Shown here piece by piece: positions 9,829-25,912 of a DNA stretch of 64,000 nucleotides (within the stretch, counting starts at the first letter, position 1; each line of letters begins with the position of its first letter). The notes under the pieces are model-generated. The model saw nothing but the letters and a program-made list of their open reading frames with translations. It was not told the DNA's origin and did no database searches. The stretch is from Salegentibacter sp. (GTDB lineage: Bacteria > Bacteroidota > Bacteroidia > Flavobacteriales > Flavobacteriaceae), in the NCBI GenBank assembly GCA_017795085.1, contig CP051246.1:806514-870513 (forward strand), written 5' to 3'. Made by a program: the position numbers and the translations under genes.

Positions 9829-10695
9829 CTAATTCCATTTTGATGTTGGTCTTTCAAATGTTTCTGTTAGAAATTTATTTACTATAGAATTAAAGTACTT
9901 TGGATTTGAGCCCGGAGTATAATGTGTTTCTCCCGGCATAATACATAATTGAGCATGTGGTAAATTTTCGAAAATTTCCACTGCATGTTCGTTTTTTATA
10001 ATATCCCTATCCCCATTTATCACTAAAACAGCTGCATTGACTTTTTGCAACTCGGAATGGGAAATATTAGGTTGATAGTACAGTAATTGGTCTAGTTGCT
10101 TTTCTAAGTTCCAGTCTTTTGATTTATCTCCTTTTGCTATCATTTTCTTAGCTTCATCTAAGTTTTCTTTTACCTTTTTCGGAGCCCAGCTATTTACAGC
10201 TGTTGTGTCAGGTCTTAAATTGGCCCCCATTGTGACAATTTTTTTAATTTTCACATTATTATTAATTCCCATTTTTAAACCAACTATACCACCATCACTC
10301 CATCCTACAATATTTATAGAGTCAAGTTTCAAATATTTGACTAATCTTTCCCAATCCTTAGCTATTTGATTATAAGTTAAAGAATCTGTTTTTAATTCTG
10401 ATTTTCCCTGACCTCGACTATCTGCAACAATAATTCTAAATTTATCTTTGAAATAATCAATCTGATTTTCCATTGATTTTATATCTGCACCGCAACCATG
10501 AATTAGAAGTAATGGTTCTCCTTTTCCATATTCTTCATAGTAAATATCTGCATTATTTATTTGGACATATTTTCCAACTTCTGGATTGCTCCCATAAGCA
10601 ACCTCGAATTTACGACTTTCTTGATTTTGAGAATATGAAAATCCAAAAAGTAATATTGTAAATAATAAAGTGATTCTTGAAAAGTGATTTTTCAT
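9829..10695 (-). CDS. Secreted alpha/beta hydrolase
   Basis: Signal peptide, LLLIHG, DSRGQG, GWSDGG elbow and PGETHY. Confidence 0.9.
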   Translation of the reverse strand: MKNHFSRITLLFTILLFGFSYSQNQESRKFEVAYGSNPEVGKYVQINNADIYYEEYGKGEPLLLIHGCGADIKSMENQIDYFKDKFRIIVADSRGQGKSELKTDSLTYNQIAKDWERLVKYLKLDSINIVGWSDGGIVGLKMGINNNVKIKKIVTMGANLRPDTTAVNSWAPKKVKENLDEAKKMIAKGDKSKDWNLEKQLDQLLYYQPNISHSELQKVNAAVLVINGDRDIIKNEHAVEIFENLPHAQLCIMPGETHYTPGSNPKYFNSIVNKFLTETFERPTSKWN

Positions 10696-10970
10696 AAGGG
10701 AATACTGGTTTTTGTATTATGTTAACAGCAATATAGCAATTTATTGAAGATGTATGTAATATTTAAAGGTTCCTTGTTGTTTTTGACAATACGGTTGCTG
10801 ACTTTAAACCTGAAAAATATCAAACCTAAATTCTAGCAAATTTTTATATTCTGTGCTAGACTAAAAAAAATATTTTAAAACTAATATTAAGAAATGCTAT
10901 GCGTTACCTGTGCATGGATAATTCCACTTAGTCTTGTTAAGAGTTTCAAGTCATACCTAATCCTTCAATT

Positions 10971-11058
10971 TTACATACCCGGTATGTAAAGTAAACACTT
11001 CCTACTATTTCCCTTTTTAGCTTAGCTTCAGAATTTACGTAACAAAAGCGCTTTTGTT
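10971..11058. promoter_or_regulatory. Two conserved palindromes upstream of the excisionase
   Basis: TTACATAC-CCG-GTATGTAA (10971-10989) and AACAAAAGCGCTTTTGTT (11041-11058). Both are conserved at 46776-46794 and 46846-46863. Confidence 0.65.
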
Positions 11059-11085
11059 CATTTTTTAACTTTAAATTTTTTAAAA

Positions 11086-11373
11086 ATGAACGAACTAAAA
11101 ATTTTAGAGCAACTGGACCGTATAGAAAAGATGGTCCGTGCCCACAAGAATGTATTGACTTTTGATCAGGCCTGTGATTATACCGGCATCTCAAGAAGTT
11201 ATATGTATAAACTTACCGCTAGTGGAGAAATTCCTTATTCCAAGCCGAAAGGGAAATTAATCTTCTTCTCCCGGGAAAAACTGGATGATTGGCTGTTGCA
11301 AAATAACCATTCCTCTAAAGATGAGATTAAGCAGCAAGCTGTTGATTATGCTTTTCGGAATAAGAGGTTTTAA
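11086..11373 (+). CDS. Excisionase-like helix-turn-helix protein (HTH_17)
   Basis: LTFDQACDYTGISRSYMYKLT...IPYSKPKGKLIFFSREKLDDWL. Confidence 0.88.
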   Translation: MNELKILEQLDRIEKMVRAHKNVLTFDQACDYTGISRSYMYKLTASGEIPYSKPKGKLIFFSREKLDDWLLQNNHSSKDEIKQQAVDYAFRNKRF

Positions 11374-11384
11374 AGATTGGGATT

Positions 11385-12566
11385 ATGAAGAGGGATGAGC
11401 TAAAACTCTATCAGGTCTTCGAACAGAAGAAAAAGACAATCTATGATTATGTGGATGAATATATCTCCAATAAGTACGATATCCGGTTTAATGAAATATC
11501 GCAGGAATTTCAGATATCCATCAAAGACTTAAACTCCTGGGAAGATTTTGAAGTGAATTCTTTGCTGATTGAATTAGCGAAATCAAATATTGAGGTTAAC
11601 CCCGGGAAGCTTGATATTTATCTAAGGTCTAATCTAATTCCAAGATTTAACCCTATCACCGAATATTTTGATAAGCTCCCAAGATGGATAGGAGGGGACC
11701 ATATTCGAAAACTCGCTTCCTACCTGCCTACCAGGGAACCTGAACAATTTCTTTATCACTTTAGAAAATGGCTGGTAAGAACAGTAAAAGGTTCTCTGGA
11801 AAAGGATTATTTCAATAAACAGTGCCTGGTACTTGTGCATTCGGAACAGAATTCTGGGAAATCTACCTGGTGCCGGTTTCTCTGTCCACCTGCTTTGTCC
11901 AGGTATTTCGCTGAAGATATGACAACGGATAAAGATGCCAGGATTCAGCTTACCAGAAACTTTATCATCAATTTGGATGAGCTATCTGTGCTGGCTAAAA
12001 AAGAAATAAATACACTTAAAGCTTATTTCTCCAAAACAATGATTAATGAACGATTGCCCTATGATCGCAAAAACTCCATCCTGCGAAGGACCTGCAGTTT
12101 TATAGGATCAACAAACAGAGCAACATTTCTTAATGACGAAACCGGTTCTGTGCGGTGGTTATGTTTTGAGTTAAAGGGTAAAATTGATTTCGCTTATTCC
12201 CAGGAAATAGATATCGACAAAGTATGGGCTCAGGCATACTACCTGGCCTATGTGGATGAACAATTCTGCCCGGAATTGACACCAGAGGATATTGCTGCAA
12301 ATGAAGAAAGAAACAAGACCTATCGGGAAGCCAGTATGGAGGAAGAATTGCTCGCAAAATATTATCTCCGAAGTTCAGATCCGGCTGACTTTAAAACGGC
12401 ATCCGATATTGTATTGCAACTCAATTGTATTAATCCGCGATTGAATATGTATTATATGGGAAGAGCATTGAAAGCTTTGAACTTTGAAAGAGTAAAATCG
12501 CCTCAAAATGGAAGTTATGGTTATCTGATCAAACCACGGTTTAAGACCTCTCCATTAGAAGTTTAG
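11385..12566 (+). CDS. VapE-like (virulence-associated protein E) P-loop helicase/ATPase
   Basis: Walker A variant QNSGKST, IINLDEL, ERLPYDR and FIGSTN...FLNDETGSVRW. Confidence 0.88.
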   Translation: MKRDELKLYQVFEQKKKTIYDYVDEYISNKYDIRFNEISQEFQISIKDLNSWEDFEVNSLLIELAKSNIEVNPGKLDIYLRSNLIPRFNPITEYFDKLPRWIGGDHIRKLASYLPTREPEQFLYHFRKWLVRTVKGSLEKDYFNKQCLVLVHSEQNSGKSTWCRFLCPPALSRYFAEDMTTDKDARIQLTRNFIINLDELSVLAKKEINTLKAYFSKTMINERLPYDRKNSILRRTCSFIGSTNRATFLNDETGSVRWLCFELKGKIDFAYSQEIDIDKVWAQAYYLAYVDEQFCPELTPEDIAANEERNKTYREASMEEELLAKYYLRSSDPADFKTASDIVLQLNCINPRLNMYYMGRALKALNFERVKSPQNGSYGYLIKPRFKTSPLEV

Positions 12567-12573
12567 GAGAATC

Positions 12574-12746
12574 TATTTACCCTATTTACCCAAAACTTCG
12601 GAAAAGCCTATTAACAAAGGGACTTTCACGGGGTAAATAGAAATACAGAACTATCTACCCATATCTACCCTTGGGGTAATTAGGGTAGATAGAAAAAATA
12701 GCCAAAAAAGAATAAAAACCCAGTATTTACAGGCTCTGGGTAAATA
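12574..12746. repeat. Iteron-like cluster, TATYTACCC / GGGTARATA
   Basis: Direct copies at 12574, 12583, 12652 and 12662. Inverted copies at 12631, 12683 and 12738, with a near-copy at 12674. Confidence 0.75.
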
Positions 12747-12766
12747 GGTAATTAAAAAATAAAAAA

Positions 12767-13624
12767 ATGAACTTAAATAACTTATCGTGCAAAAGTGCCC
12801 GTAATATTTGCATCGTAAAAACGCTGGCAAAATTAGGGCACTTTCCCACCAGAAAATCGGAAAAAGAAGCTTGGTTTCTGAGTCCCCTTCGGTCAGAAAC
12901 ACAAGCCTCTTTTAGCGTTTCCTTAATTAAAAACTTATGGTTTGACTTTGGATTGGGAAAAGGAGGAAATACCATAGACCTTATTATGCAAATGAAATCC
13001 TGCTCTGTAAAAGAAGCACTGGAATTTCTAAAAGATGATATGATATCTTTCTCTTTTAGCCCGCCAAAGCTTAAGCTTCCAGAAAAAGATTTTGACATTC
13101 ATATAATAGATATCCAGTTTCTTAATCTTAACGCTTTAGTGAAGTACCTGGAATCCCGGAAGATACCTTTCGAGATTGCCCGAAAATATTGCAGGCAGGT
13201 TTGGTATAGCTATAAAGGGAAACAATATTTTTCGATCGGTCTCAAAAATTATAAGGGCGGTTGGGAACTTCGAAATAAATACTATAAAAACTCCAGCAGT
13301 CCGAAAACCTATTCCTTCCTTGAAAAAGATTCGAACCAGTTAATTATTACAGAGGGGATGTTTGATTTTCTTTCCCTGGCCACTATCGATGAAAAACTGG
13401 TAGAACATTCAGCTATTATCATTTTAAATTCCCTGGCCTTTATCCAACAGATTGAAATGATCCTTCAAAACTATGAACGGGTGCTGCTCTTTTTGGATAA
13501 TGATGCTGCCGGTAAAAGTGCAACCCATAATCTTACAAGTCGGTATACCCATATCGAAAATTGCAGTAACCGGTATAAAGGCTATGTAGATCTGAATGAA
13601 AAACTCAAAGATGAAAAAGCCTAA
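12767..13624 (+). CDS. DNA primase-like protein (zinc-finger-like N-terminus + Toprim)
   Basis: SPLRSETQASF, WFDFGLGKGGNTIDL, IITEGMFDFLS and FLDNDAAG. Confidence 0.88.
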   Translation: MNLNNLSCKSARNICIVKTLAKLGHFPTRKSEKEAWFLSPLRSETQASFSVSLIKNLWFDFGLGKGGNTIDLIMQMKSCSVKEALEFLKDDMISFSFSPPKLKLPEKDFDIHIIDIQFLNLNALVKYLESRKIPFEIARKYCRQVWYSYKGKQYFSIGLKNYKGGWELRNKYYKNSSSPKTYSFLEKDSNQLIITEGMFDFLSLATIDEKLVEHSAIIILNSLAFIQQIEMILQNYERVLLFLDNDAAGKSATHNLTSRYTHIENCSNRYKGYVDLNEKLKDEKA

Positions 13625-14123
13625 AAAATATAAATCCTATTCCAGGAAGAGTAAAGTACCGAGTATGGAGGACCTTATTTTTACCCCTGCTGAAGGGAAA
13701 AAGTCTAAGCAGGATAGCAAGGAACTACAACTTACTTTACAAACTGTAGAAGGAAGTGCAAGATGTGTGCCTGTGGGCACAATCTTGATTGCTCCCGATG
13801 GTCGCAATGAAAAAAAGGAGATGTTTAAGGGGAAAAGTGATTGTATAAAATTCAGGTGTTCGTTATATGAGAAAAAGCTGTTTAAGCTAAAAGCCAGGCA
13901 AAGCGGACTTACTTTAAGTGAATTTTGTAGAACGGCCATCTATGAAAAGGAAATAAAAGAACGCCTCTCGGAGGAGCATATTGAAATCTATAAAACCTTG
14001 GTGAAGTTTCATAATAATTTCAAGTCGATAGGGAATATGTTCCGAAAGAAAGACCCGCGGCTTTCCAAAACAGTTTACGACCTGGCCGATGAAATAAAAG
14101 CACATCTTAAAAATTTTCAATGA
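13596..14123 (+). CDS. mobC: Mobilization accessory protein MobC-like (ribbon-helix-helix). True start may be ATG 13821
   Basis: IKFRCSLYEKKLFKLKARQSGLTLSEFCR RHH pattern and NFKSIGNMF. Overlaps the relaxase start. Confidence 0.75.
   Translation: MKNSKMKKPKKYKSYSRKSKVPSMEDLIFTPAEGKKSKQDSKELQLTLQTVEGSARCVPVGTILIAPDGRNEKKEMFKGKSDCIKFRCSLYEKKLFKLKARQSGLTLSEFCRTAIYEKEIKERLSEEHIEIYKTLVKFHNNFKSIGNMFRKKDPRLSKTVYDLADEIKAHLKNFQ
13759..13787. promoter_or_regulatory. Candidate oriT hairpin
   Basis: CAAGAT-G-TGTGCC-TGTG-GGCACA-ATCTTG inverted repeat just upstream of the likely mobC start. Confidence 0.45.
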
Positions 14124-14986
14124 TGATCGGAAAAGGAAAAGCCATATCACATACCCGCGCTTCTATGTCCTACGGGTGGAACCAGGAGAAAAGTGCCGAA
14201 GTGGTGTATTCCCAAAATATTACCGGGGAGAACCCCAAAGAAGTGAGCGCTGAATTCCGTCTGACCCAGCAGCTTAACGAGAATTGCCAGAAAAACACCC
14301 TCTCCTTTATCATTAGTCCAACAATAGATGATGGTAAAAACCTTGGAAAGGAAGAACTCTCTAAAATATGTGACCGGTTTATGAAGGAGATGAAACTCCG
14401 GGATCGCCAGGCCATTGCCTTTGTTCATAAGGATAAAAAGCACAAACATATCCACTTATATGTTAACCGCGTAAATTTTAAAGGCCAGGCCTATAATGAC
14501 AGCTTTATAGGGAAACGAAGTCAGCAGGCGGCAGAAAAGGTAGCGGAAAGAATGCGGCTAACTACCGTAAGACAAGTGCAATGGGAAAAAGAACATAACC
14601 TGAAGGCTATTCGTGCAGAGATTAAACGACGTCACGAACTAACTTTTAGGCAATTTAAACCGCGGACTTTTAAAGATTATATAAAGGGAATGGAAACCAA
14701 TGGAGTGAAGGTGATTCCTTCCATCAATAAAAGCAATAAGCTGCAGGGTTTTCGCTTTGAGTTTGATAAATACAACCTGAAGGGGAGTGCGGTACACCGC
14801 ACAATGAGCGGGGGCAATATCGGGAAACGTTTAGCGGGTGAAAAGGGAATGTCGCATTTTCTAAAAAACAATACCCAGCTCAAACTGGCCACCAAAACGG
14901 TAGAACTTTCTACGGGAATGATTAAAACCATAGCCAAAAATATTATAAAAAAGACCATTTCAAAAGGACTGGATATGGGCATTTAA
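14120..14986 (+). CDS. Relaxase (MOB-P/VirD2-like)
   Basis: SFIISP and HKDKKHKHIHLYVNRV (HUH motif). Confidence 0.92.
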   Translation: MMIGKGKAISHTRASMSYGWNQEKSAEVVYSQNITGENPKEVSAEFRLTQQLNENCQKNTLSFIISPTIDDGKNLGKEELSKICDRFMKEMKLRDRQAIAFVHKDKKHKHIHLYVNRVNFKGQAYNDSFIGKRSQQAAEKVAERMRLTTVRQVQWEKEHNLKAIRAEIKRRHELTFRQFKPRTFKDYIKGMETNGVKVIPSINKSNKLQGFRFEFDKYNLKGSAVHRTMSGGNIGKRLAGEKGMSHFLKNNTQLKLATKTVELSTGMIKTIAKNIIKKTISKGLDMGI

Positions 14987-14997
14987 ATACAAACATT

Positions 14998-15297
14998 ATG
15001 ACAAAATTGGAACAACTTAGTGAACTGCTGGTTTCTGAAATAAGCCAGTTTGAAAAGACGGTGGAGAGGTTAGAAAAGATACAAAAACAACAAATTGGTA
15101 TTGATAGTAGTAACCTGGAAAATGCCTTAAGGAAACAGAATGAGAAAATGGAAAACTCCTTAACCCACCACAGGCAGGAAATGAAAACTTTAGGTTATGA
15201 ACTGCGACAAACCAAAGCTTACCCTGTGTGGGCCATTTGTGTCTTCATTGTTTCGGTAGTGCTGAATGGCGTTTTGATTTATGCAATTTTCAACTAG
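14998..15297 (+). CDS. Conserved small coiled-coil protein with C-terminal TM helix, downstream of the relaxase
   Basis: A homologue sits in the same position at 50038-50347. Confidence 0.7.
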   Translation: MTKLEQLSELLVSEISQFEKTVERLEKIQKQQIGIDSSNLENALRKQNEKMENSLTHHRQEMKTLGYELRQTKAYPVWAICVFIVSVVLNGVLIYAIFN

Positions 15298-15365
15298 TCG
15301 AAATATCATTAATTTTAATATCTGAATTTAGATGGATACGACATTTGTCACTATATTTGTGATAA

Positions 15366-15833
15366 ATGACGCGTGTTATGGTTGAGACAATTAATTATAA
15401 AAAAGAAAGAGAGACGGTTGCAAAGTGGCTGGAACTCAAAACCCTTTCACTAAAAAAAGGAAACTCCTCTTTTGCCTACCTTAAAGTTTTACAAGAAGGT
15501 TTACATAGGAACTCTGTAAATTCTTTTATAAAGCATTCCACATTATCCAGAAAACAGGTGGCTAAATTAATTCATGTTTCTGAGAGAACCCTACAGCGAT
15601 ATTCGCCTGATAAGACTATGGATATTAATTCATCGGAACGGCTCATAGAATTAACACGCCTTTTTCATAAGGGAATTAATGTTTTTAATGACAAAGAAAA
15701 GTTTATTACCTGGTTAAACCGCCCAAATAAATCTTTGGCAAATTCAAAACCAATTGATTTAATGGAAACGAGTCTTGGTATTGATTTAGTTTTAGATGAG
15801 TTGCTTCGAATTGAACATGGTGTTTTTTCATGA
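15366..15833 (+). CDS. Xre/MbcA/ParS-type antitoxin
   Basis: LSRKQVAKLIHVSERTLQRY HTH and WLNRPNKSLANSKPIDLM. Overlaps the RES gene. Confidence 0.9.
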   Translation: MTRVMVETINYKKERETVAKWLELKTLSLKKGNSSFAYLKVLQEGLHRNSVNSFIKHSTLSRKQVAKLIHVSERTLQRYSPDKTMDINSSERLIELTRLFHKGINVFNDKEKFITWLNRPNKSLANSKPIDLMETSLGIDLVLDELLRIEHGVFS

Positions 15834-16285
15834 TTGCCTATAGAATTACAAAGAAAAAATGGATTAAAGATTTAAGCGGAACCGGAGCGAAATTAACGGG
15901 GGGACGCTGGAACCCGAAAGGCTTTCCTGTTTTATATTGTGCATCAACCTCTTCTTTAGCTATTTTGGAAAAATTAGTTCACGTTGATTTTGATCTCTTG
16001 CCAGATGACCTATTTATTGCAGAATTGGAAATTCCTGAAAATAGCATTGAAGAATTAACATTAAAAAATTTACCTAAGCATTGGAATAAATATCCAGGTC
16101 CGGATAGCCTCAGGTCACTTGGAAAAAAATGGCTTATGGAAAATAAATACCTAATTCTTAAGGTGCCAAGTGCCGTAAACCCAAATGAAACAAATTATCT
16201 AATTAATGTAGATCACTCGGATGCCGATAAAATCAAAATCATAAAAACCTATCCTTTTGAAATTGATAATCGGTTGATAAAATAG
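15830..16285 (+). CDS. RES-domain toxin (NAD+ phosphorylase family)
   Basis: AYRI, GGRWN, YCASTSSLAILE, LKVPSAV and NYLINV. Confidence 0.92.
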   Translation: MIAYRITKKKWIKDLSGTGAKLTGGRWNPKGFPVLYCASTSSLAILEKLVHVDFDLLPDDLFIAELEIPENSIEELTLKNLPKHWNKYPGPDSLRSLGKKWLMENKYLILKVPSAVNPNETNYLINVDHSDADKIKIIKTYPFEIDNRLIK

Positions 16286-16359
16286 AGCGAGTTTTATCAA
16301 ATATTGATCTTCAAAAAAATATGTAGCCCACGCAGTTGTAAATATTTCAAACATTATGT

Positions 16360-16388
16360 AATCACTTTTAAATTATTTAAAAGTGATT
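16360..16388. terminator. Perfect 12-bp-arm hairpin between the RES gene and the RNA array
   Basis: AATCACTTTTAA-ATTAT-TTAAAAGTGATT. Confidence 0.55.
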
Positions 16389-16396
16389 TCTACGTT

Positions 16397-16465
16397 ACTG
16401 TATGTGCTGTTCGCATTTAGTGAGTGTTGATCATAACCTCACCTTACGGGTGTACAGGCACCCTC
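16397..16465 (-). ncRNA. Putative dCas12f guide-RNA scaffold, distal copy (diverged)
   Basis: 56/69 identical to the middle copy. Most changes fall in predicted loops. Confidence 0.7.
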
Positions 16466-16539
16466 GAATTTACAACCTCTTACCATTTCTCTTCACTATT
16501 TATATCTTGGAGTGATCACATTAAGTGAGAGCCCACGCC

Positions 16540-16608
16540 GTTGTATATGCTAATCGCATTTAGTGAGTGTAATTTCCAACCTCACCTTGCGGGTGTACAA
16601 GCACCCTC
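16540..16608 (-). ncRNA. Putative dCas12f guide-RNA scaffold, middle copy
   Basis: 67/69 identical to the proximal copy. Followed by GGCGTGGGCTCTCACT. Confidence 0.8.
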
Positions 16609-16714
16609 TTAATTATTCATTTATAAATTATAGCACCTGAAATTTCTTATTTGGTATAGTAAGTAATTACCTTTAGGATTCTGGACAATCTGTTAAAAAA
16701 TAAGTGAGCCCACG

Positions 16715-16783
16715 GTTGTATATGCTAATCGCATTTAGTGAGTGTAATTTCCAACCTCACCTTACGGGTTTACAAGCACCCTC
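16715..16783 (-). ncRNA. Putative dCas12f guide-RNA scaffold, proximal copy
   Basis: GAGGGTGCTTGTAAACCCGTAAGGTGAGGTTGGAAATTACACTCACTAAATGCGATTAGCATATACAAC starts 10 nt after the dCas12f stop. It has three predicted hairpins and is followed by CGTGGGCTCACTTATT. Confidence 0.8.
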
Positions 16784-16792
16784 GTAAAATCA

Positions 16793-17893
16793 TCAATCTG
16801 TTATCAATTCAATGCCGGCTTTTTCGGCTTTGTATTTTATTTTGGCCATCAGTTTATAATAGCTCCAGTTCCGCAATACAAATTCCTCCTCTTTGGCAAT
16901 TTCCATTTTATTCTCCTGATTCATTAGAATTAGTGTGCCTGCCTGGTGCTTTACGCAAAAGTCAATTAATTTCCGACTGTAGAGGTGCAGCCGATTAGTC
17001 ACATAATTCTTTTCTAACTCGTGAAATCTTTGCACTGCTTTTGTTTTTCGCCTGCGCCCTTTACCTGATTTTGCATAGGTTACTCCTTCCTGTGCCCTTT
17101 TACGGGCGGCTTGTATCGCAAGCCTACGGTATAAGAATTCTTCCCGGCTGCCGATGTTCAGTTTGTTCTTACCGGCTTTAACTATAATGGGGTATTCCAG
17201 CGACAGAGAAGCCTCGGCGATCACATTAGATTTTAAGCTGTGCTTTTCTTTTTCAATTTCAAATGTGGCCAGCAAAAAAGTTTTGTCATTTTTCAATTGA
17301 ATGTGGGAAGTACATAGCTTTGTCTCCCCTGCTATTACCCGCTCCAGTAGCTTGCGCTTATCGGAATAATCCCTTCCTAAATATGTTTTTAGCGGAATGG
17401 AAAACAAACGAAAACAAAAGGCTTTTTTCTCTTCATCATAACATAATCCTTTAATGCCATCCATATCAAACGGAAAAGCCATATCCCTTTTAAAGTTCAT
17501 TAAGGAACGTTCGCCCTTCCAGTATTCTACCTTATTTTTCTGAAACGTACCCATTAAATTGTGGTTGATATTGCCTAAAATGTTGGTAGGGATTTCCCCT
17601 TTATAGCGGTCGGACACTACCCGGTAGGTGGCATTGATGCGGGAGCGGTTCAGGATGCCGGCTTCATCTTTCTTTTCATCGGCCAGTTTATATTTTATCC
17701 CTTCGGTTAAATAAAAGAATTCCTGGATCATTTCCTGAACGTAAAGATGGCTAATAATAAGATTAGCCGCCTTGAAGCTGCGGTTGCGCCACTGGTAGAG
17801 TTTATCCAGAGCCTCCTTCCGTTCTTCTTTGGTAGGCAGATCAACCAGTAACTGGATCTTTCGGGTGAGTTTTATAGTATCTTTTCCCATCAC
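16793..17893 (-). CDS. Nuclease-dead Cas12f/TnpB-like RNA-guided DNA-binding protein (dCas12f)
   Basis: TnpB/Cas12f layout: TRKIQL start, YLGRD wedge region, bridge helix, LHLYSRKLIDFC, NWSYYKLMAKIKYKAEKAGI. RuvC-I GIDLG is replaced by AEASLS, the RuvC-II Glu is absent (LILMNQ), and the protein stops before the zinc finger and RuvC-III. Confidence 0.85.
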   Translation of the reverse strand: MMGKDTIKLTRKIQLLVDLPTKEERKEALDKLYQWRNRSFKAANLIISHLYVQEMIQEFFYLTEGIKYKLADEKKDEAGILNRSRINATYRVVSDRYKGEIPTNILGNINHNLMGTFQKNKVEYWKGERSLMNFKRDMAFPFDMDGIKGLCYDEEKKAFCFRLFSIPLKTYLGRDYSDKRKLLERVIAGETKLCTSHIQLKNDKTFLLATFEIEKEKHSLKSNVIAEASLSLEYPIIVKAGKNKLNIGSREEFLYRRLAIQAARKRAQEGVTYAKSGKGRRRKTKAVQRFHELEKNYVTNRLHLYSRKLIDFCVKHQAGTLILMNQENKMEIAKEEEFVLRNWSYYKLMAKIKYKAEKAGIELITD

Positions 17894-18675
17894 TAAGCCG
17901 ATTGTTGTTGTTCGTGTTTTAGCTGCAAAAGTTTATATGCTGCCATAAATTCTTTGTGGACCTTCTTTTGGGAAAGGTTGAGCTCATTTGCAATGGCAGC
18001 AAAAGAATACTGCTTTTCTGTACGTAGCTGTAAGACCTTTTTCTGGTCCTCGGTCATTTTGCCCTGTAGCTTTACCGCCAGCATCGGTTTTGGTTTGGTT
18101 TCCAAATTGCTCCCCTGGTGAATGATGTTTTTAATATCCTCGATCGCCCGTTTTACCTCGTTGCTGGTGTAGGTAATACTGGTTCCCATAAGCTGAGCAA
18201 TGGCTTTATACTGAAAACCGTATTTTAAACAGAGTTCAATTAGGTGTCGTCTTTCAGGGCTAAGTAAAGGGAAAACACGGCTTACCCGGTCGAAGGCTTT
18301 CTGCTGGGTCTCGCTATCCAACAGATGTTCATCCTCCTTCTCGGGGTCATAGCCGTGCATGTATTTTTCATAGTCCTCATAATATTCCAGGCGGTTGATG
18401 TTTCGGTAAAAATTATTCTTAGGTCGGGCATAGTAATAGGTACAATCCCTTTTCATTACATAGCGAAGAAAAAAGAAAATATGTTCCGGGCGTTCTATCC
18501 CATCTCTATTTTCCCATAGTTTCAGGAAAGTATCCTGAAGGATGGTCTCAATGACGAATTCATCCCGAATTAATTGCTTTCCTAACCAAAAGAGCCTTCG
18601 GTGGTACCTGGCATAAATTAATTCCAGGGCATCGGGATGGCCTTCTTGTAATAATTTAAAAATACGCTGTAACAT
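17893..18675 (-). CDS. ECF-type sigma factor (sigmaE-like) with an extra C-terminal HTH, translationally coupled to dCas12f
   Basis: Sigma region 2 (IYARYHRRLF...ILQDTFLKLW), region 4 (LSPERRHLIEL...YKAIAQLMG) and a second region-4-like HTH (MTEDQKKVLQL...FAAIANELNLS). Its stop abuts the dCas12f start. Confidence 0.88.
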   Translation of the reverse strand: MLQRIFKLLQEGHPDALELIYARYHRRLFWLGKQLIRDEFVIETILQDTFLKLWENRDGIERPEHIFFFLRYVMKRDCTYYYARPKNNFYRNINRLEYYEDYEKYMHGYDPEKEDEHLLDSETQQKAFDRVSRVFPLLSPERRHLIELCLKYGFQYKAIAQLMGTSITYTSNEVKRAIEDIKNIIHQGSNLETKPKPMLAVKLQGKMTEDQKKVLQLRTEKQYSFAAIANELNLSQKKVHKEFMAAYKLLQLKHEQQQSA

Positions 18676-18780
18676 AATAAGTTAAATTTAAACTTTCATA
18701 CTATGTAGGTTTTTCAGATCATTAGGAAGAACTTTTACAATATGATTAATAAAAATGCTTACAAGTCTTCTAATAACACT

Positions 18781-18865
18781 CAAATATAATGAAATTTTAT
18801 AACTAATGGTACAGGTACCTTTGTTAAAGATTTAATTATGTTCCTAATTGTAGCCTCGGAACATA
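18781..18865. promoter_or_regulatory. Divergent promoters and candidate operator
   Basis: TATATTTG on the minus strand (18781-18788), TACCTTTG on the plus strand (18815-18822) and the inverted repeat TATGTTCC-N13-GGAACATA (18837-18865). Confidence 0.55.
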
Positions 18866-18869
18866 GCTC

Positions 18870-19097
18870 GTGGCAAGTAAAATTGAAATCTATATTATTA
18901 AAAAGGTAAGAGATAAGAGAAGGGAGAAAGGCTTATCTCAAATAGCTCTTTCCCAAAAATTAAATTTAAGTGATAGTTTTGTTTCCCATGTGGAATCAAA
19001 AAATAGAAGAGCAAAATACAACCTTAACCACTTAAACGAAATTGCTTTAATTCTGGAATGTTCTCCCAAAGATTTTTGGCCTGAAAAGCCACTTTAA
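18870..19097 (+). CDS. Xre-family HTH regulator, divergent from the sigma-dCas12f operon
   Basis: VRDKRREKGLSQIALSQKLNLSDSFVSHVE...YNLNHLNEIA. GTG start. Confidence 0.88.
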   Translation: MASKIEIYIIKKVRDKRREKGLSQIALSQKLNLSDSFVSHVESKNRRAKYNLNHLNEIALILECSPKDFWPEKPL

Positions 19098-19128
19098 ATA
19101 ACGTAATGGTTGAGTTGATTTCTTTTCA

Positions 19129-19182
19129 TTACGGTTTTCCGCATTTCTCTCTTATTTTATTGTTTTATATTTAGCGAAACTG
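19129..19182 (+). repeat. 54-bp promoter/operator repeat, copy 1 (copy 2 at 22343-22396)
   Basis: TTACGGTTTTCCGCATTT(C/T)TCTCTTATTTTATTGTTTTATATTTAGCGAAACTG, 53/54 identical. Confidence 0.85.
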
Positions 19183-19251
19183 CGTTATCCCAACATATTA
19201 GTTCTTGAATGGCTTTATTTATCGGGATACAAGGAGTTAGGCATAATCATT

Positions 19252-20265
19252 ATGAAAAAAGAAAAAGATTTTAAAATAGAAGATTTTTACAAGTTAATTG
19301 CCCTGGTAATTTTATTATGGATAATTAGTTGGATAACGACAGATATAATCTATTCTTCAACTACGGATAGAGGAGCATTTGGAGATAAATTTGGGTTTAT
19401 CAATTCTCTATTTTCTGGATTAGCATTAGCTGGAATTATTTATTCTATTTTTCTTCAACAAAGAGAGCTCTCACTCCAAAGAAAGGAATTGACGGAAACA
19501 AAAGAAGAGTTCAAAGATCAAAATTTTCAGACTACATTTTTCAATTTAGTAAAAACTCAAAATCAGATTGCTAATGATCTATCAGCTAAGGTTTCATTTA
19601 TAAGAAATTACGATGATCATACATATAGAAATTTAGAGGGGAGAAAATTTTTTAACCAATCCAAATTTGAGCTACAAAGAATTGAAAAAGCATTATCAAA
19701 TTCAGCATTTCTAGAATTTCGCCGATGGGATCCTCAAGATGAATCAGATGAACCTCAGAGTTTTGAGGAAGCTATAAGACTTACCGACACTATGAAGATA
19801 TCCTATACTTTCAACTATTATAAAATAGACAAAGAAACTTGGGAAAAATTTTCGCAATTAGATCCAATTAAAAAAGCTGAAAAATTGTATGCTTTGTTTT
19901 TCAATAAATTTCATTTCGCGATTGGTCATTACTTCAGACATATATACCATATTTTGCTTTTCCTTGAAAAAACTGAGGAAGAAAAAATATTAAAGTTCAA
20001 TTCAATTACAGATTTAGAAACTAAAAATAAGAGAATTGCCTCTACAAAAGCTGAATTTAAACAGTATGCTGACTTTTTACAAGCTCAGATGTCAACACCA
20101 GAGCTTTTTCTACTTTTTTACAATTCATTATCATTTCCAAAACTAAAGAAATTACTAATTAAATATAATATTCTTGAAAATTTACCTGAGGAAGATTTAC
20201 TTAATAAGGAGCACAATGCTATAGAAGGTATTAATTTGAAGAGTATAAAGGAAAACCTTAAATAA
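19252..20265 (+). CDS. Putative phage abortive infection protein (putAbiC-like) with N-terminal TM helices
   Basis: GAFGDKFG..NSLFSGLA, FQTTFFNL, GHYFRHIYHIL and LQAQMSTPELFLLFYN. Confidence 0.75.
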   Translation: MKKEKDFKIEDFYKLIALVILLWIISWITTDIIYSSTTDRGAFGDKFGFINSLFSGLALAGIIYSIFLQQRELSLQRKELTETKEEFKDQNFQTTFFNLVKTQNQIANDLSAKVSFIRNYDDHTYRNLEGRKFFNQSKFELQRIEKALSNSAFLEFRRWDPQDESDEPQSFEEAIRLTDTMKISYTFNYYKIDKETWEKFSQLDPIKKAEKLYALFFNKFHFAIGHYFRHIYHILLFLEKTEEEKILKFNSITDLETKNKRIASTKAEFKQYADFLQAQMSTPELFLLFYNSLSFPKLKKLLIKYNILENLPEEDLLNKEHNAIEGINLKSIKENLK

Positions 20266-20419
20266 TGACTATGCCCAATATTGGTTCATCGCAAATAACG
20301 GATATTTTGGAAAACTATAACTTTAAGAACCAAAAGAGAAAAATTGTTAGCCAATAATTCTAGCGAAGAACCTCCTCAATTCATGTACATCAACCATTGG
20401 AAAAGTCCTAAGAAAATTT

Positions 20420-21604
20420 ATGAATTTTGAAGAAGTTAAAACCTCCCCTGTGGGGATTTGGTTTGTTAATGCACCCAACCAAGATACCAAGAAAGTACTG
20501 ATTAAAACTTCCACCTATCTACTAAAACATATTTATATTGGGGTCAAGACTGAATTAATTGTAGGGATTTATAATAGTTTGAATACTATTTATCCAATGT
20601 TAGCTCTTAAAATTTTTGATGATACTGTTTATCCCAGTTTAATTACCGAAAAAGTTGAAGTTAATCAATTGGGGCCATTGGAAAGTGTAATGTCATCAGA
20701 GAAAATTGAAGTGAATTTTTATGATGAATTAGGTGCTTTATCCTTAATCGGATACCTACGAATTGATATAAATAATAGATTCAAATTCTTAGAATTTTAT
20801 GGAGGTATAAATTATTCTGAAAATGACAGAAATATAATTAAAGCTAGTGATTCTCTTGATTCATTTACCAATGCTATAAATGAGAAAAAAGCTACAGATG
20901 AGATTATAAAGTTCAATTATTTTGAAATTAAATTCTATGATTTGGTACAGATTGAAAATCATCACCTTGGTTGGGGCCAAACAAATAAAATTTCACTAGG
21001 AGATTTTAATGAAGGTGACAAGCTAGAGCATCAAATAGCCATTGTAAGTGAGTCAATTTTCAAACAAAATACTTTTAAAAATCCATTGGTTAAAAATGGT
21101 AAATTTGAAAGAGAGTTAACAGACGTTTTTATGATGTATGACCGTGGTTTATTTCTAATAGAAACTAAAGCTTCGAGTGTCCTTAATAAAAAAGATCAAA
21201 AATTTGAAAGAAAAATTAATGGGGTTATTAAGCAAATCAAAAAGGGTGTTAATCAATTAATTGGAGCAAATAAGAAATTAAGAAAAGGATGTGATTTGTT
21301 CGATACTGATGGCTGTGAAATTAATTATAATTCAGAGGCAATTACTCAGAATATAGTTCTGGTTTCTGAGGTTGTACATTTAGCTGACAGAGAAGATTTA
21401 AAGCAATTTTTACTGAATTCCATGGTAGATAATAATTTATCAATTCAATTAATGGGATTCGATGAATACATGTTAATAATTAAAGCAGCGGAAGGAAAAA
21501 AAGAATTATTTGATTATTATCTAATGGAAAGAATGAAGGGATGGGTAAAAAAGGGGTGTCCTCTAAATTTCAAGATTATGTTCACGAATAATAATCAGCT
21601 GTAA
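20420..21604 (+). CDS. Hypothetical protein with a C-terminal PD-(D/E)xK/NERD-like nuclease signature
   Basis: ELTDVFMMYDRGLFLIETKAS...KGVNQL. The N-terminal half is unassigned. Confidence 0.5.
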   Translation: MNFEEVKTSPVGIWFVNAPNQDTKKVLIKTSTYLLKHIYIGVKTELIVGIYNSLNTIYPMLALKIFDDTVYPSLITEKVEVNQLGPLESVMSSEKIEVNFYDELGALSLIGYLRIDINNRFKFLEFYGGINYSENDRNIIKASDSLDSFTNAINEKKATDEIIKFNYFEIKFYDLVQIENHHLGWGQTNKISLGDFNEGDKLEHQIAIVSESIFKQNTFKNPLVKNGKFERELTDVFMMYDRGLFLIETKASSVLNKKDQKFERKINGVIKQIKKGVNQLIGANKKLRKGCDLFDTDGCEINYNSEAITQNIVLVSEVVHLADREDLKQFLLNSMVDNNLSIQLMGFDEYMLIIKAAEGKKELFDYYLMERMKGWVKKGCPLNFKIMFTNNNQL

Positions 21605-21802
21605 TAAAACAATGGGTAATCTAAAAATAATGTTTATGGCAGAGTGTTAATTGATTTAACCTAAGATCATCCAACATCAATATAGACTTCCCGCAATTTC
21701 CCTTATATTTGTCATATTCCCACCCTACAGGAATATTTAATTGCAGCCAAATCATTATATTCAGGCTGTTTAAATATAATTAAGAGCTCCAACCTACCAT
21801 AC

Positions 21803-22183
21803 ATGGCAAAAGCAGATATCGATTTTGAAAAGGAACTCTGGGACGCAGCCAACGAACTTAGAGGTGCCGTTTCAGAAAACAATTATAAAAACTACATTCT
21901 TCCCCTGGTATTTCTTAAACACCTTAGCGAACGTTACGAGGTGATTCGGGAGGAATTAAAGGATTTAATGAACGATCCTTTTTCAGATTATCATACTACC
22001 GATACCGAAGAAATAAATTATGTGCTGGAAGACCGGGACGAATACCGTTCCCGCAATACTTTTAAAATTCCGGAAAAAGCGTCCTGGCAGTATTTAAAAG
22101 ACAATGCTGAGCAGGATGATATCAAGGTAAAAGTAGATGATACTTTTGATGAAATCCAGGGACTGCTTATCGAATGCCAGTAG
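21803..22183 (+). pseudogene. hsdM: 5' fragment of a type I RM methyltransferase (hsdM), about 120 codons
   Basis: FEKELWDAANELRG...YILPLVFLKHLSERY is an HsdM N-terminus. The catalytic domain is absent. Confidence 0.85.
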
Positions 22184-22342
22184 AAACACTCTTCAAAATA
22201 TGTCCAGAAAGGCGAATAAGTGTTTCAGATTTCATTCTTTAGACAACTTGAAAAAAGTTTCCTGATTTGAAGATTGAAAAGTGAATTTTTAGAAGCTTTT
22301 CCTGCATATTTGAACTTTACAGATCCTTCTTTTTTACTCTCT

Positions 22343-22396
22343 TTACGGTTTTCCGCATTTTTCTCTTATTTTATTGTTTTATATTTAGCGAAACTG
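22343..22396 (+). repeat. 54-bp promoter/operator repeat, copy 2
   Basis: Matches 19129-19182. Confidence 0.85.
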
Positions 22397-22483
22397 GGTT
22401 TGTCCTGGTCGATCTCATCTTAAAAAGGGATATTATTTGAGGTGTAACGAGTTTGCAACAATATTCTGATCGAATTTTAAAGA

Positions 22484-23476
22484 ATGGCTAAAAAAAATCA
22501 ATACAATAACTTACAGTTTAATTCAAAAGATTTTGAAAACATATCTAAATTGCTCTCTTCTTATAATTCAACTATAAATAGACAAATAGCCCAAAGTGAC
22601 ATTTCCAACTTTGCAAAGGAATTGTCGGAAAGTCTTACCAGACAAAATCAAATAAGAAGTTCAATTGGTGAAGAACTTAGAGGATCATTGGAGAATGGGA
22701 GTTTTCTAAAAAACATAAATGCAATAAACGGATTGAGTAGAATTACACCTCCGAATTTTCCAGATGAAAATTTTGCAAAGCAAATTGCTAATTTCACTTT
22801 AGGGAGTCAAATATTGGTCAATAATCTAAATACCCTATCTAAAAATATTGCTAGTGATATTGCTAATTTTAGTCCTTTAAAAATTGGAATTCAAGATATA
22901 AATGAATCTTTATATAAAGAGATAAATCAGTATAATGACTGGTCAAATCTTGAATCGATCACAGACATTAATGAAGAATTTGTAGAAGAAATTGAAGACA
23001 CTGAGGCAGAAGAAATTTCCGATATAATAGAACTTCGCGACACTTTAATTGAAAGACTGCTAGTATTATATGAGAGAGCACGAACTGAAATAGGGAAAGA
23101 GTATATATGGAGGCTAATGAACTTGATAAGTTTAATCCTTAGTATATATTCTGCCGCAAATCCTTCTCAAAAAACTGTTATTCATACAAAAGAAATAGTA
23201 AGAGAATCTAAAAACAGTCTTCCTAGAATTGAATCTAAGCTTGATTCCTTAAATAAGAAATTAGATTCTAAAAATCAGCTTAGAATAGCTATAGCAAATG
23301 TCAACTTAAGATTGAAAAATAAAAAAGGATCTAAAAAGTCTGGATTAGTTCAATCTGGACAAATTGTAATTGTTTTAAAGATCAAACATAAATGGCTTTA
23401 TATATCGTATGTGAATTCAAATACAGGAGAAGTACATTTTGGTTACGTTTTCAAAAAATATTTCGACACAATTTAA
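22484..23476 (+). CDS. Hypothetical protein, coiled-coil rich, with a C-terminal bacterial SH3-like domain
   Basis: NVNLRLKNKKGSKKSGLVQSGQIVIVLKIKHKWLYISY...FGYVFKKY. Confidence 0.6.
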   Translation: MAKKNQYNNLQFNSKDFENISKLLSSYNSTINRQIAQSDISNFAKELSESLTRQNQIRSSIGEELRGSLENGSFLKNINAINGLSRITPPNFPDENFAKQIANFTLGSQILVNNLNTLSKNIASDIANFSPLKIGIQDINESLYKEINQYNDWSNLESITDINEEFVEEIEDTEAEEISDIIELRDTLIERLLVLYERARTEIGKEYIWRLMNLISLILSIYSAANPSQKTVIHTKEIVRESKNSLPRIESKLDSLNKKLDSKNQLRIAIANVNLRLKNKKGSKKSGLVQSGQIVIVLKIKHKWLYISYVNSNTGEVHFGYVFKKYFDTI

Positions 23477-23615
23477 TCCATACAGTTGCCAACAATGGCT
23501 CATCGCAAATAAGACGAGTATTGTGGAAAAAATTTGATTTTAGAAATCAGAAAAGTAAATAGTTAAGCCAATAACTTTACATCACCACACATCATTTAAA
23601 TACAATTTAAAATAA

Positions 23616-24932
23616 ATGAAAACTTATTTTGGAAGAATATCAATAGAAAATAAACCGAAAATAATAGAAAGTGTACGATTAACAATAAATAAAAAAAAAT
23701 ATGAGATTGAGTTTTCCTCCAGTGAAAGAAGTTTTCGCAATATAAAATTGATTCATGGAATATTTAATGGATTAGGTGATGTAACCTTAATAAATTGTAG
23801 AAATACTTCCTCAGAAAGTGGAGCTGGAGCAGAAATTAATAGGTATCAAGTTAATTATATTTTAAAAGGAATTCAGATTGAAAACTTAGAAGATTTTTTC
23901 TTCGATTGTGCTTATATCCGAATGCAAGGTTTACTTGATTGGACAAAGCTCTATTCTGTTGAATACCTTCGAGAAGGTCAAAAAAGAAGTCTAATTGTCA
24001 AAGATTTAGAGAAAATATTATTCCATGAAGGCAACCTTTTTTCAATCAAAATTTATGCTGCTAATACAATATCTTTATCTAGAAATCCAGATAGACGAAC
24101 TATAATAGAAAACGCAGGTTTTGAAATCACCAGTAAACTCCATCAAAAACATAATTTTTGGGATTATTTAGAAGTTTTTCGGGAACTTCAAAAAATAGTA
24201 TTGATCTTAGGGAATAGAAAGACCGATATCAATTTTGCGAATTTTCATAAAGAAGGTATTGATCCCGTGGATCTATTATGGAAAGACAGTATTTCAATAG
24301 GTCAGCCTTCCACAATGGGCCCATTTGTTGAATTTAAGGAAATTCAACCTGATTTAGATAGAATTCTTAAAACCTGGTTCGGTAATAAAGATATTCATAC
24401 TAGTATAGATTTAATTCTAGAGAAATCAATAAATGTTAAACTAAGCAGAGAGAACCATTTTTTAAATAATTGCTTTGCATTAGAAACATTTCATCGCCGA
24501 TTCAAAAATTATAAATTATTTGATAAGGAAGAATTCAAATCAATAAAAAGTAATATTTTACAATCCATTGAAAATCCGGAATTATCAAAACTTATTGAAA
24601 ATAATCTAGCTCACATCAATGAACCTAATTTTAGAAGTAGATTATTAGATTTTAAAACTGACTTTACTTTAATCTTACCCTCCGAGTGGGATACTTCAGA
24701 ATATATTAGGAAAGTTGTGAAAACTCGAAATTATTTAGTTCATAGAAGTTCTGCTAAAAATATTTTGGACAAATTTGATATGCTTTATGCTGCTTTCTTT
24801 CTTGAATTAATCACAAGGATATATATTTATAAAATTTTAGGTCTTAAAGAAGAGTTATGTCACAGATTATTAGAACAAAATGGAGAGAGAATCCAGGGAT
24901 TCTATTTTTCACACAAAAGAATGCGATTCTAA
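23616..24932 (+). CDS. ApeA-like protein (ApeA N-terminal domain + HEPN RNase), probably anti-phage
   Basis: FLNNCFALETFH and the HEPN motif RNYLVH (Rx4H) near the C-terminus. Confidence 0.75.
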   Translation: MKTYFGRISIENKPKIIESVRLTINKKKYEIEFSSSERSFRNIKLIHGIFNGLGDVTLINCRNTSSESGAGAEINRYQVNYILKGIQIENLEDFFFDCAYIRMQGLLDWTKLYSVEYLREGQKRSLIVKDLEKILFHEGNLFSIKIYAANTISLSRNPDRRTIIENAGFEITSKLHQKHNFWDYLEVFRELQKIVLILGNRKTDINFANFHKEGIDPVDLLWKDSISIGQPSTMGPFVEFKEIQPDLDRILKTWFGNKDIHTSIDLILEKSINVKLSRENHFLNNCFALETFHRRFKNYKLFDKEEFKSIKSNILQSIENPELSKLIENNLAHINEPNFRSRLLDFKTDFTLILPSEWDTSEYIRKVVKTRNYLVHRSSAKNILDKFDMLYAAFFLELITRIYIYKILGLKEELCHRLLEQNGERIQGFYFSHKRMRF

Positions 24933-25077
24933 TCTTAAACTACACCAGATAAGGCTAATTCGTTGCAAATAACAGGGTCTCTGAAAAAATTGTAATTTTA
25001 TAAACCAGGTAAGAAAATAATTAAACGGTATCTCTCCGTATTGTATAATATACCATTTTTATTAAATAAAGAACAAA

Positions 25078-25482
25078 ATGGAAATACTTGTTCTTTTAGC
25101 GGTTGTTGTTATTATGGGTGCCTTATTAGGTGGAAAAAGTTTGGGCGGGACTATTAGAAAAGGTTGTGGGTTTTTCATCTTGCTATTAATATTAGGTATA
25201 GTGGCTTTGGGTATACTTCAGTATTTATCCGCAGATTCTAAAAGCACACAGGACGAAGAGAAAGAAGTAATTTTAACTTCTGACAATTCACCCAATTTCG
25301 TCGCAAAAGAAAACTGTAAGACATATCCCGAACCAAATATTGAATCAGTTTCCTCAGGAAACCTCGAAATTGGTAAAGATTATTTTGTAAAGGATAGCAA
25401 TAAATTCAATTATTTCTATGAGATCACCTTTGAAAACGGTGGAAAGTTATTCGTAAGGAAAGAATGCCTGGAACGAAAATAA
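25078..25482 (+). CDS. Small membrane-anchored hypothetical protein with a possible SH3-like C-terminus
   Basis: Two N-terminal hydrophobic helices and C-terminal YYEITFENGGKLFVRKE-like beta pattern (FYEITFENGGKLFVRKE). Confidence 0.55.
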   Translation: MEILVLLAVVVIMGALLGGKSLGGTIRKGCGFFILLLILGIVALGILQYLSADSKSTQDEEKEVILTSDNSPNFVAKENCKTYPEPNIESVSSGNLEIGKDYFVKDSNKFNYFYEITFENGGKLFVRKECLERK

Positions 25483-25831: not shown

Positions 25832-25912
25832 CCTATTTTTCCTAAATTGTACCACGTAATAATCCCCCTGCAGATTATTAGCTTGCATAAAGCAAATCGA
25901 ACCAACTTATCT

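Follow-up and report, generated by a model that had tools for sequence, protein, structure and literature searches.

RNA-guided transcription (RGT) by a nuclease-dead Cas12f protein (dCas12f) and a sigma-E factor has recently been described for Flagellimonas taeanensis (Fta) (Hoffmann et al., Nature 2026, PMC13472631; cryo-electron microscopy preprint, 10.1101/2025.06.10.658880; PDB entries 9n9c, 9n9m, 9n9o, and 9n9q). The guide RNA (gRNA) of this system consists of a core of ~75 nucleotides (nt) and a 14-nt 3' guide, and its published target is a susC-susD-peptidase operon (PMC13472631). The Fta orthologue activates transcription in vivo and in vitro, with a start at +46 from the target-adjacent motif (TAM) (PMC13472631; 10.1101/2025.06.10.658880). 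Tandem multi-guide arrays and trans-acting networks were already described by Hoffmann et al., who analyzed 106 genomes (PMC13472631). Here, we examined a stretch of 64,000 nt from Salegentibacter sp. (GenBank assembly GCA_017795085.1, contig CP051246.1, positions 806,514 to 870,513; hereafter, the window, whose own numbering is used unless stated otherwise). It carries a divergent helix-turn-helix (HTH) gene, rpoE, dcas12f, and a downstream gRNA array. This locus is very probably a functional dCas12f-sigma-E RGT module, orthologous to that of F. taeanensis; in support of this, the sequence shows that the proteins are orthologous, that their genes are intact and evolve under purifying selection, that the RNA structure is conserved, and that target matches exist. 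An earlier note, made from the sequence of the window, had assigned the locus to the RNA-guided transcription class and called it "not wholly new," which was right and understated, given the published tandem guide arrays and trans-acting networks. The Fta orthologues match at E values of 1e-184 and 5e-90.

Comparison with described systems

The locus resembles the Fta system in its gene order (hth divergent from rpoE-dcas12f-gRNA); in its dCas12f of 365 amino acids (aa), 73% identical without gaps; and in its sigma factor, 52% identical, which bears the same C-terminal domain (CTD) and keeps the interface residues. Both have a scaffold of ~75 nt followed by a 3' guide, a 5'-G TAM (predicted here), a target upstream of a susC-susD-peptidase operon (likewise predicted here), and a second locus in the genome. 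In contrast to the single gRNA of the Fta system, the window locus has three tandem gRNAs and a stub; its guide reads CGTGGGCTCACTTA rather than TTGTGGGATATACG, its hth-rpoE spacer has no noncoding RNA (ncRNA) or target, and it lies on an integrative mobilizable element among defense genes. Several tandem gRNAs with similar scaffolds and guides, enriched in RNA immunoprecipitation sequencing, are also reported for Leeuwenhoekiella palythoae and Paenimyroides ummariense (PMC13472631); these belong to other genera than the host of the window, and we liken them to it by their published description.

Three other groups share part of this design. TldR proteins (Wiegand et al. 2024; bioRxiv 10.1101/2023.11.30.569447) also combine a nuclease-dead RuvC domain with TnpB ancestry, a gRNA at the 3' end of the gene, and host-gene regulation. 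Yet TldRs repress and have no dedicated sigma partner, whereas the window protein is coupled to a CTD-bearing sigma factor and, when searched against PDB sequences, falls in with Cas12f and dCas12f. Type V-F Cas12f nucleases (PDB 9nzr, 9nzo, 7l48, and 7c7l) have a common fold with it over REC, WED, and most of RuvC, and the published Fta orthologue has their dimeric architecture. Unlike them, the window locus has no CRISPR array, no trans-activating CRISPR RNA, and no intact RuvC D-E-D triad, and its repeats are three whole gRNA units. It also differs from IS200/IS605 TnpB loci, since its nuclease is dead and, as the earlier note had stated, there is no tnpA in or next to it; nor is there a CRISPR array in either position.

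Overall, the locus has a dead, truncated Cas12f; an operonic sigma factor with a CTD; no adjacent FecR-type anti-sigma gene; 3' gRNAs recognizable by sequence and structure; a divergent hth gene with an inverted repeat; and a TAM-flanked, co-oriented target, all of which are hallmarks of dCas12f-sigma-E systems. A frequent but nonobligatory hallmark, an hth-associated ncRNA over a guide-matching site, is not found in the window locus, which is of the trans-acting type.

Genes of the locus

The genes of the module and the elements in the hth-rpoE spacer are as follows.

18870..19097, plus strand: hth, a 75-aa Xre/Cro-type HTH protein, divergent from rpoE (Pfam HTH_3, 2.9e-6; HTH_26)
17893..18675, minus strand: rpoE, a 260-aa extracytoplasmic function (ECF) sigma factor with a putative dCas12f-binding CTD at residues ~205-257
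16793..17890, minus strand: dcas12f, a nuclease-dead, C-terminally truncated Cas12f of 365 aa (ATG start), or 366 aa from the GTG at 17893
18837..18865, no strand: perfect 8-bp inverted repeat TATGTTCC-N13-GGAACATA, 5 bp ahead of the hth start
18788-18781, minus strand: -7 box TAnnTTTG, TATATTTG, facing rpoE (consensus match only)
18816-18823, plus strand: -7 box TAnnTTTG, TACCTTTG, facing hth (consensus match only)

Identity of the nuclease-like protein was decided by the search of PDB sequences (phmmer), as its TnpB matches in hidden Markov model (HMM) searches were all below threshold. It matches chain 9n9c_A, "Nuclease-deactivated Cas12f," at an E value of 1.1e-184 over residues 2-364, in a gapless alignment of 363 aa with 73% identity, and active Cas12f (9nzr) at 6e-44. 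The solved structure of this 73%-identical protein settles the Cas12f fold of the window protein at the level of sequence homology. The HMM comparison with TnpB/Cas12f that had been proposed as a check gave a match to NCBIfam guided_TnpB (E value of 3e-16; profile positions 65-338 of 389) that scores 59.7 bits, under the cutoff of 100 bits, whereas the PDB search gave the full-length 9n9c match. Of Pfam Cas12f1-like_TNB, a zinc-ribbon domain, positions 1-20 of 60 alone match, at the extreme C terminus of dCas12f.

The loss of the RuvC catalytic positions, already read from the sequence in the earlier note, is borne out by these alignments. In RuvC-I, GVDLG of active Cas12f pairs with EASLS, which replaces the Asp by Ser; in RuvC-II, the Glu of the active enzyme falls in a 5-residue stretch that is missing; and the protein ends 2 residues past the alignment, where active Cas12f runs on for ~90 residues with the zinc finger and RuvC-III. 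Among the residues that contact the TAM duplex in Fta dCas12f, Y89, R90, and H110 are kept, while M85 is replaced by Ile, S106 (a main-chain contact) by Gly, and Q144 by Asp. The nearest dCas12f relatives, 93-94% identical, are found in Salegentibacter species.

The sigma factor matches RpoE of PDB 9n9q (chain C) over residues 1-257, CTD included, at an E value of 5.4e-90 and with 52% identity, and TIGR02937 (sigma70-ECF) at 2.6e-19. Its domains are sigma-2 (~20-82), sigma-4 (~128-183), and an extra region-4-like HTH (205-257). All four CTD residues in contact with dCas12f in the structure (R218, F225, H240, and F243) have been retained. Domain searches of the neighboring genes revealed no FecR or other anti-sigma gene beside rpoE (the neighbors of the module are hth, AbiC, a NERD-like gene, Xre-RES, and the relaxase), in agreement with the earlier description of an ECF sigma factor with an extra C-terminal HTH and no adjacent anti-sigma.

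At the rpoE/dcas12f junction (TAGTGATG), the G of the GTG start of dcas12f doubles as the G of the rpoE stop codon. Only 2 nt past that stop lies the ATG at 17890, the counterpart of residue 1 of the solved orthologue. This arrangement makes the two genes an operon with tight coupling, as the claim of translational coupling had it. The length of 366 aa given before holds for the open reading frame from GTG; the start is most likely the ATG, judging from the alignment, and the product 365 aa. Against three orthologues and the locus B paralogue of this genome, ratios of nonsynonymous to synonymous substitution rates (dN/dS) are 0.05-0.08 for dcas12f and 0.06-0.13 for rpoE. Both genes are thus intact and, by these ratios (0.05-0.13), under strong purifying selection.

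The divergent Xre HTH gene seen upstream in the earlier note corresponds to hth. In an rpoE-dcas12f locus of Christiangramia (L014), a homologue with 83% identity is placed divergently in the same way; homologues with 47-51% identity occur in loci L025 and L034. The 8-bp inverted repeat is a candidate operator at which the HTH protein probably represses its own gene. Besides this repeat, the 194-bp hth-rpoE spacer contains the two divergent -7-type boxes only; a search with a hairpin model (R2, described below) found no ncRNA and no target element in it. Nucleotide homology between the window locus and two 93-94% orthologues (L005 and L044) starts exactly at rpoE. Just past the 3' end of hth, a patch of 60-160 bp (window 19120-19277) is kept at 75-91% identity in six related loci and in locus B, despite differing hth genes in between; it may be the outer boundary of the module.

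Guide RNAs

Downstream of dcas12f, three tandem repeats of ~90 nt, spaced 143 and 175 bp apart, lie on the minus strand, with 69-nt scaffold cores at 16715-16783, 16540-16608, and 16397-16465. The scaffold of the first, A1, begins 10 nt beyond the dcas12f stop codon. The features of the array are as follows (CM, covariance model).

16699..16787, minus strand: gRNA A1; scaffold 16715-16787, 3' guide CGTGGGCTCACTTATT (16714-16699), then a T run; CM score, 94 bits
16524..16612, minus strand: gRNA A2; scaffold 16540-16612, guide GGCGTGGGCTCTCACT (16539-16524); CM score, 98 bits
16383..16469, minus strand: gRNA A3; diverged scaffold 16397-16469, guide AACGTAGAAATCAC (16396-16383); CM score, 88.7 bits
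16360..16388, no strand: perfect 14-bp hairpin AATCACTTTTAAAT/ATTTAAAAGTGATT, into which the A3 guide extends with its 3' part
16310..16343, minus strand: remnant of a fourth gRNA; last 6-8 nt of the scaffold (TTTACAAC) and guide-like TGCGTGGGCTACATATTTTTTT, scaffold body gone

The structured repeats of the earlier note are these three units, and their scaffold covaries. A CM built from the six scaffolds of the genome found 67 copies in 46 related loci, all directly 3' of dcas12f except two (L033 and L042), which are just upstream of it. The scaffold forms three helices, with 97.9% of cells paired, and all four pairs of helix 3 covary. Scaffolds A1 and A2 are each one base off the 69-nt query scaffold, and A3 has 12 substitutions. 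By sequence, the units fit the Fta description of a ~75-nt core and a 14-nt 3' guide. The A2 guide has the same core as A1, offset by 2 nt; both belong to a guide type, (G)GCGTGGGCTC..CTTAT, that is common across many flavobacterial genera. The A1 guide is identical in the orthologous locus of S. lacus, and the A2 guide type also occurs in the loci of Salinimicrobium marinum and S. tibetensis. From its position, the 14-bp hairpin is the probable end of the array. The stub at 16310-16343 was considered as a self-target and rejected, with 9 of 14 positions matching; its 89% identity to gRNA A2 over 19 nt fits better with a 3' end left over from a fourth gRNA.

The closed genome (4.73 Mb) has three rpoE-dcas12f loci: the window locus (A), B, and C. 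Locus B (3.093-3.095 Mb) is intact, with proteins 75-77% identical to those of locus A and three gRNAs (B1 to B3). Locus C (4.140 Mb; L003:14129-14480) retains the last 78 dcas12f codons and one intact-looking gRNA, C1 (guide GGCGTGGGCATCGCC, then a T run), and adjoins an insertion sequence (IS) transposase, DDE_Tnp_1_4 (L003 12644-13942). In total, the genome has two intact loci, one IS-destroyed locus, seven gRNAs, and three target/ncRNA elements. As a separate observation, the array of locus B (L001:9150-9430) expanded through tandem copies of a unit that joins the last ~90 nt of dcas12f to the scaffold; the "guides" B1 and B2 therefore run into copies of the gene 3' end, and those of B1 to B3 are noncanonical, with no clear target. 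Across the genus Salegentibacter, 12 of 19 genomes have one to five matches, counting intact copies and remnants.

Predicted targets and the hairpin element

Targets were predicted by the criteria of Hoffmann et al.: a perfect 6-nt seed, an intergenic position, and the correct orientation. Only A1 gave strong matches in this genome. Both of its sites are intergenic and correctly oriented, have a perfect 6-nt seed, and follow a 5'-G TAM. One (13 of 14 positions; genome 606314-606327, minus strand) lies 531 nt upstream of a susC-susD-M16 peptidase operon, and the other (12 of 14; genome 3092990-3093003, plus strand) lies 202 nt upstream of the locus B rpoE. The best G-TAM match of A2, 11 of 14 positions with 10 contiguous, falls at the same locus B site. 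By the same criteria, A3, B1, B2, B3, and C1 have chance-level genome matches only, and no guide has a target inside the window. Two further A2 matches were set aside: the one at 1,862,597 appears by eye to be a tRNA T-arm (GGTTCAAATCC comes next), and a 13-of-14 match of the A2 core at 65,827 lies inside a coding sequence with a T TAM. The predicted regulon is thus the ordinary, published one and lies outside the window.

Upstream of both susC starts, at 75-90 nt, there is also a conserved hairpin, CCTTCC(T)CC(T)AAAGATTGG.GTCTGGTG.GGAAGG (L002:5835-5880 and L003:8385-8425, both minus strand), with at least two further copies elsewhere; a +46 start counted from it would land ~30 nt ahead of susC. 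It was not counted as a target of B1 or B2, since the resemblance needs indels and seed mismatches.

Both A1 sites lie within a conserved element that has three copies in the genome and that, from the target onward, forms a long hairpin, with the target in its 5' arm, followed by a U tract. Searches with a model of this hairpin (R2) placed it ~200 nt ahead of rpoE in 26 related loci and gave three matches in this genome, none of them in the window. Across the copies, 95% of cells are paired, and one G-C pair within the guide-matching core has become A-U in five distinct sequences. L005 and L044 carry the element. The third copy in the genome, at 4.135 Mb (L003:8978-9061, minus strand), lies upstream of a second susC-susD-M16 peptidase operon and has the core CGTGTCATCC; cognate guides (GGCGTGTCATC..) occur in two other Salegentibacter species, and none of the seven gRNAs of this genome matches it.

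By its sequence, the element is evidently the "hth-associated ncRNA" of Hoffmann et al., whose 5' end coincides with the target and whose role they left open (PMC13472631); that paper mentions no terminator or hairpin for it. A TAnnTTTG box lies ~130 nt before the hairpin, and counting +46 nt from the TAM leads to the first bases of the hairpin 3' arm. Transcripts coming from the upstream box would terminate at the hairpin and U tract, whereas guide-directed transcripts, starting on the first bases of the 3' arm, would therefore be without the 5' arm and escape the terminator. This bypass is suggested by the geometry of the element only.

Several other repeats were seen around these elements. 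A conserved block of ~130 nt between hth and the target hairpin (L001:6860-6985; L002:6335-6460 and L003:9062-9190, both minus strand) starts with the TAnnTTTG box and holds GCGAAAC-TTCT...AGAAGCATTTCGC, an inverted repeat with imperfect arms; the block may be the promoter and leader of the ncRNA or an HTH operator. Two diverged copies of the target hairpin (CM E value of ~1e-6; L058:766-860, plus strand, and L059, genome 4105873-4105960, minus strand) are found 120-130 nt ahead of the gene for a 130-136-aa protein of unknown function and match A2 and C1 over GGCGTGGGCT, preceded by C. A family of ~100-nt intergenic repeats, with ~26 copies genome-wide (L051-L056, e.g., L052 ~270-330; consensus ...TTTTTCCGATACATACCT CGTGGGCTTGCCCCGAGGTTGTTGATT), is often found between convergent genes; over 8-11 nt, its core agrees with both the canonical guide seed and the locus B target (CGTGGGCTTGC), usually with T, not G, before it. 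Of the 72 CGTGGGCT sites in the genome, 32 are intergenic, versus 12.6% of the genome for intergenic DNA. An Rfam search of the target, ncRNA, and repeat loci, the ~100-nt family included, gave nothing relevant.

Carrier island

The module is part of an island whose backbone features are as follows.

4969..40399, no strand: integrative mobilizable element, 35.4 kb, with a 19-bp direct repeat TTCTGTATTGGTAAATAAA at 4969-4987 and 40381-40399
5167-6351: tyrosine integrase, island backbone
11385-12566: VapE-like gene, island backbone
12767-13624: primase, island backbone
13596-14123: NikA, island backbone
14120-14986: relaxase, island backbone
15366-16285: Xre-RES, island backbone, a toxin-antitoxin pair between the relaxase and the gRNA array

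The direct repeat is made of the mnmE 3' end, and its left copy (4969-4987) is at mnmE. Besides the module, the island carries AbiC, NERD-like, ApeA-HEPN, type I restriction-modification, McrB-like, and IS genes. Eight related loci likewise have the module next to homologues of the relaxase, NikA, or primase; they come from Salegentibacter (two species), Salinimicrobium, Sinomicrobium (three species), Galbibacter, and one metagenome-assembled genome (MAG) of an unclassified member of the Flavobacteriaceae. The main text of Hoffmann et al. (PMC13472631) does not mention mobile elements in this connection.

The arrangement around the array varies. In Salegentibacter sp. BDJ18 (L044), the relaxase block comes after the gRNA array, without Xre-RES; in S. 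tibetensis (L045), an Xre-RES pair with 83-86% identity likewise abuts the array. The right repeat is directly followed by a truncated second integrase (window 40381-41128) of 246 aa, without the N-terminal arm-binding domain of the full-length island integrase, as might be expected if related elements had accreted in tandem at mnmE.

Proposed mechanism and alternative explanations

By analogy with the published orthologue, from which we infer binding, sigma recruitment, and the position of the start site, the module would work as follows. The rpoE-dcas12f operon would be transcribed from an ordinary promoter in the 194-bp spacer, and a dCas12f dimer would bind the single gRNAs of ~89 nt encoded just 3' of dcas12f. 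A1 and, more weakly, A2 would direct an R-loop at 5'-G-flanked sites of the form CGTGGGCT(C/T)(T/G)CTTAT. The sigma factor would dock via its extra CTD onto the truncated RuvC domain and bring RNA polymerase, so that transcription would begin ~46 bp downstream of the TAM with no need for a promoter motif. The matching sites are elsewhere on the chromosome; therefore, the module would act in trans, on the susC-susD-M16 operon and on locus B, which corresponds to categories I and IV of Hoffmann et al.

Several observations weigh against this reading. The two A1 sites carry 1 and 2 mismatches at guide positions 9-10, the A2 match extends over only 10 contiguous nt, A3 has no credible target in the genome, and initiation at the susC site would imply a leader of ~485 nt. 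The TAM of the window orthologue is assumed from Fta, and two of the Fta TAM-site residues, S106 and Q144, are Gly and Asp here. The window locus is also without the hth-associated ncRNA and self-target that most relatives have. Finally, the argument for terminator bypass is purely geometrical, and the U tract is weak in the Flagellimonas group.

Two alternatives deny that the locus activates transcription. The protein could instead be an RNA-guided repressor that blocks transcription at its target, in the manner of TldR or CRISPR interference, with the adjacent sigma factor working independently. Repressing nuclease-dead relatives of TnpB and Cas12f are known, and the target overlaps the ncRNA gene, whose transcription a bound dCas12f would block. 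Yet the sigma factor has a dCas12f-specific CTD with all four interface residues kept, rpoE and dcas12f are translationally coupled, and the 73%-identical orthologue activates transcription in vivo and in vitro, so that we consider repression very improbable. Marginally less probable again is that the locus is a decaying, nonfunctional TnpB/Cas12f remnant carried passively on the island. Decayed copies and gene remnants are indeed present in this and related genomes, and both A3 and the fourth gRNA stub appear degenerate. Against decay, both open reading frames are full length with dN/dS of 0.05-0.13, the A1 and A2 scaffolds are each a single base away from the query, and the A1 guide is unchanged in another species.

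Two further proposals accept an activating module and concern what it is for. In a wider scenario, which we advance tentatively and think rather unlikely as a whole, integrative mobilizable elements of the Flavobacteriaceae would spread dCas12f-sigma-E modules. As different genera have kept the guide/target pair (GCGTGGGCT...CTTAT), an island arriving in a new host could at once switch on the susCD-peptidase operon of the recipient and its resident rpoE-dcas12f locus; the window copy would have shed its ncRNA/self-target control, and the +46 start would bypass the terminator hairpin. Somewhat more doubtful still is that the beneficiary of the module is the mobile element and not the host: an activator without its own self-target and ncRNA brake would gain control of the RGT circuit already present, namely locus B and the susCD-peptidase operon. 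The resident proteins, whose three own guides are noncanonical, may in addition receive canonical ones from the island. This idea agrees with the place of the module within a 35-kb element that has 19-bp repeats at mnmE, an integrase, primase, NikA, and relaxase; with the mobilization backbone flanking it in eight related loci of at least four named genera and one MAG; and with its patchy distribution in the genus (0-5 matches per genome, intact copies and remnants together). It also agrees with a guide and target type kept across genera, with A1 and A2 aiming at the locus B promoter region while B1-B3 are without a canonical guide or target, and with the lack of an ncRNA that the 93-94% orthologues L005 and L044 retain. 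However, service to the element is compatible with the host-regulator explanation, as the molecular mechanism is identical, and island carriage may simply spread a useful host regulator. Mobility of the element, a benefit from susCD activation, and cross-use of guides between 75%-identical paralogues are conjectural. We retain the reading of the locus as a functional dCas12f-sigma-E RGT module.

Implications

The class, the tandem guides, and the trans-acting networks are already published, and the locus itself is not new. The suggestion of the earlier note that this multi-guide, island-borne instance and its regulon may be new holds in part: the island context is absent from the main text of Hoffmann et al., while tandem guides are published and the regulon is ordinary. 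What is possibly new is the carriage on an island, the missing ncRNA and self-target, and the target as the 5' arm of a terminator-like hairpin. To a specialist, the locus would be expected rather than surprising. Its value is that of a natural, well-annotated case of a system whose first reports date from 2025-2026, and it suggests two extensions, neither of which alters the known mechanism: RNA-guided sigma modules may be disseminated by mobilizable islands, with conserved chromosomal targets on which they act in trans, and the hth-associated ncRNA may be a terminator hairpin that is bypassed by guide-directed initiation.

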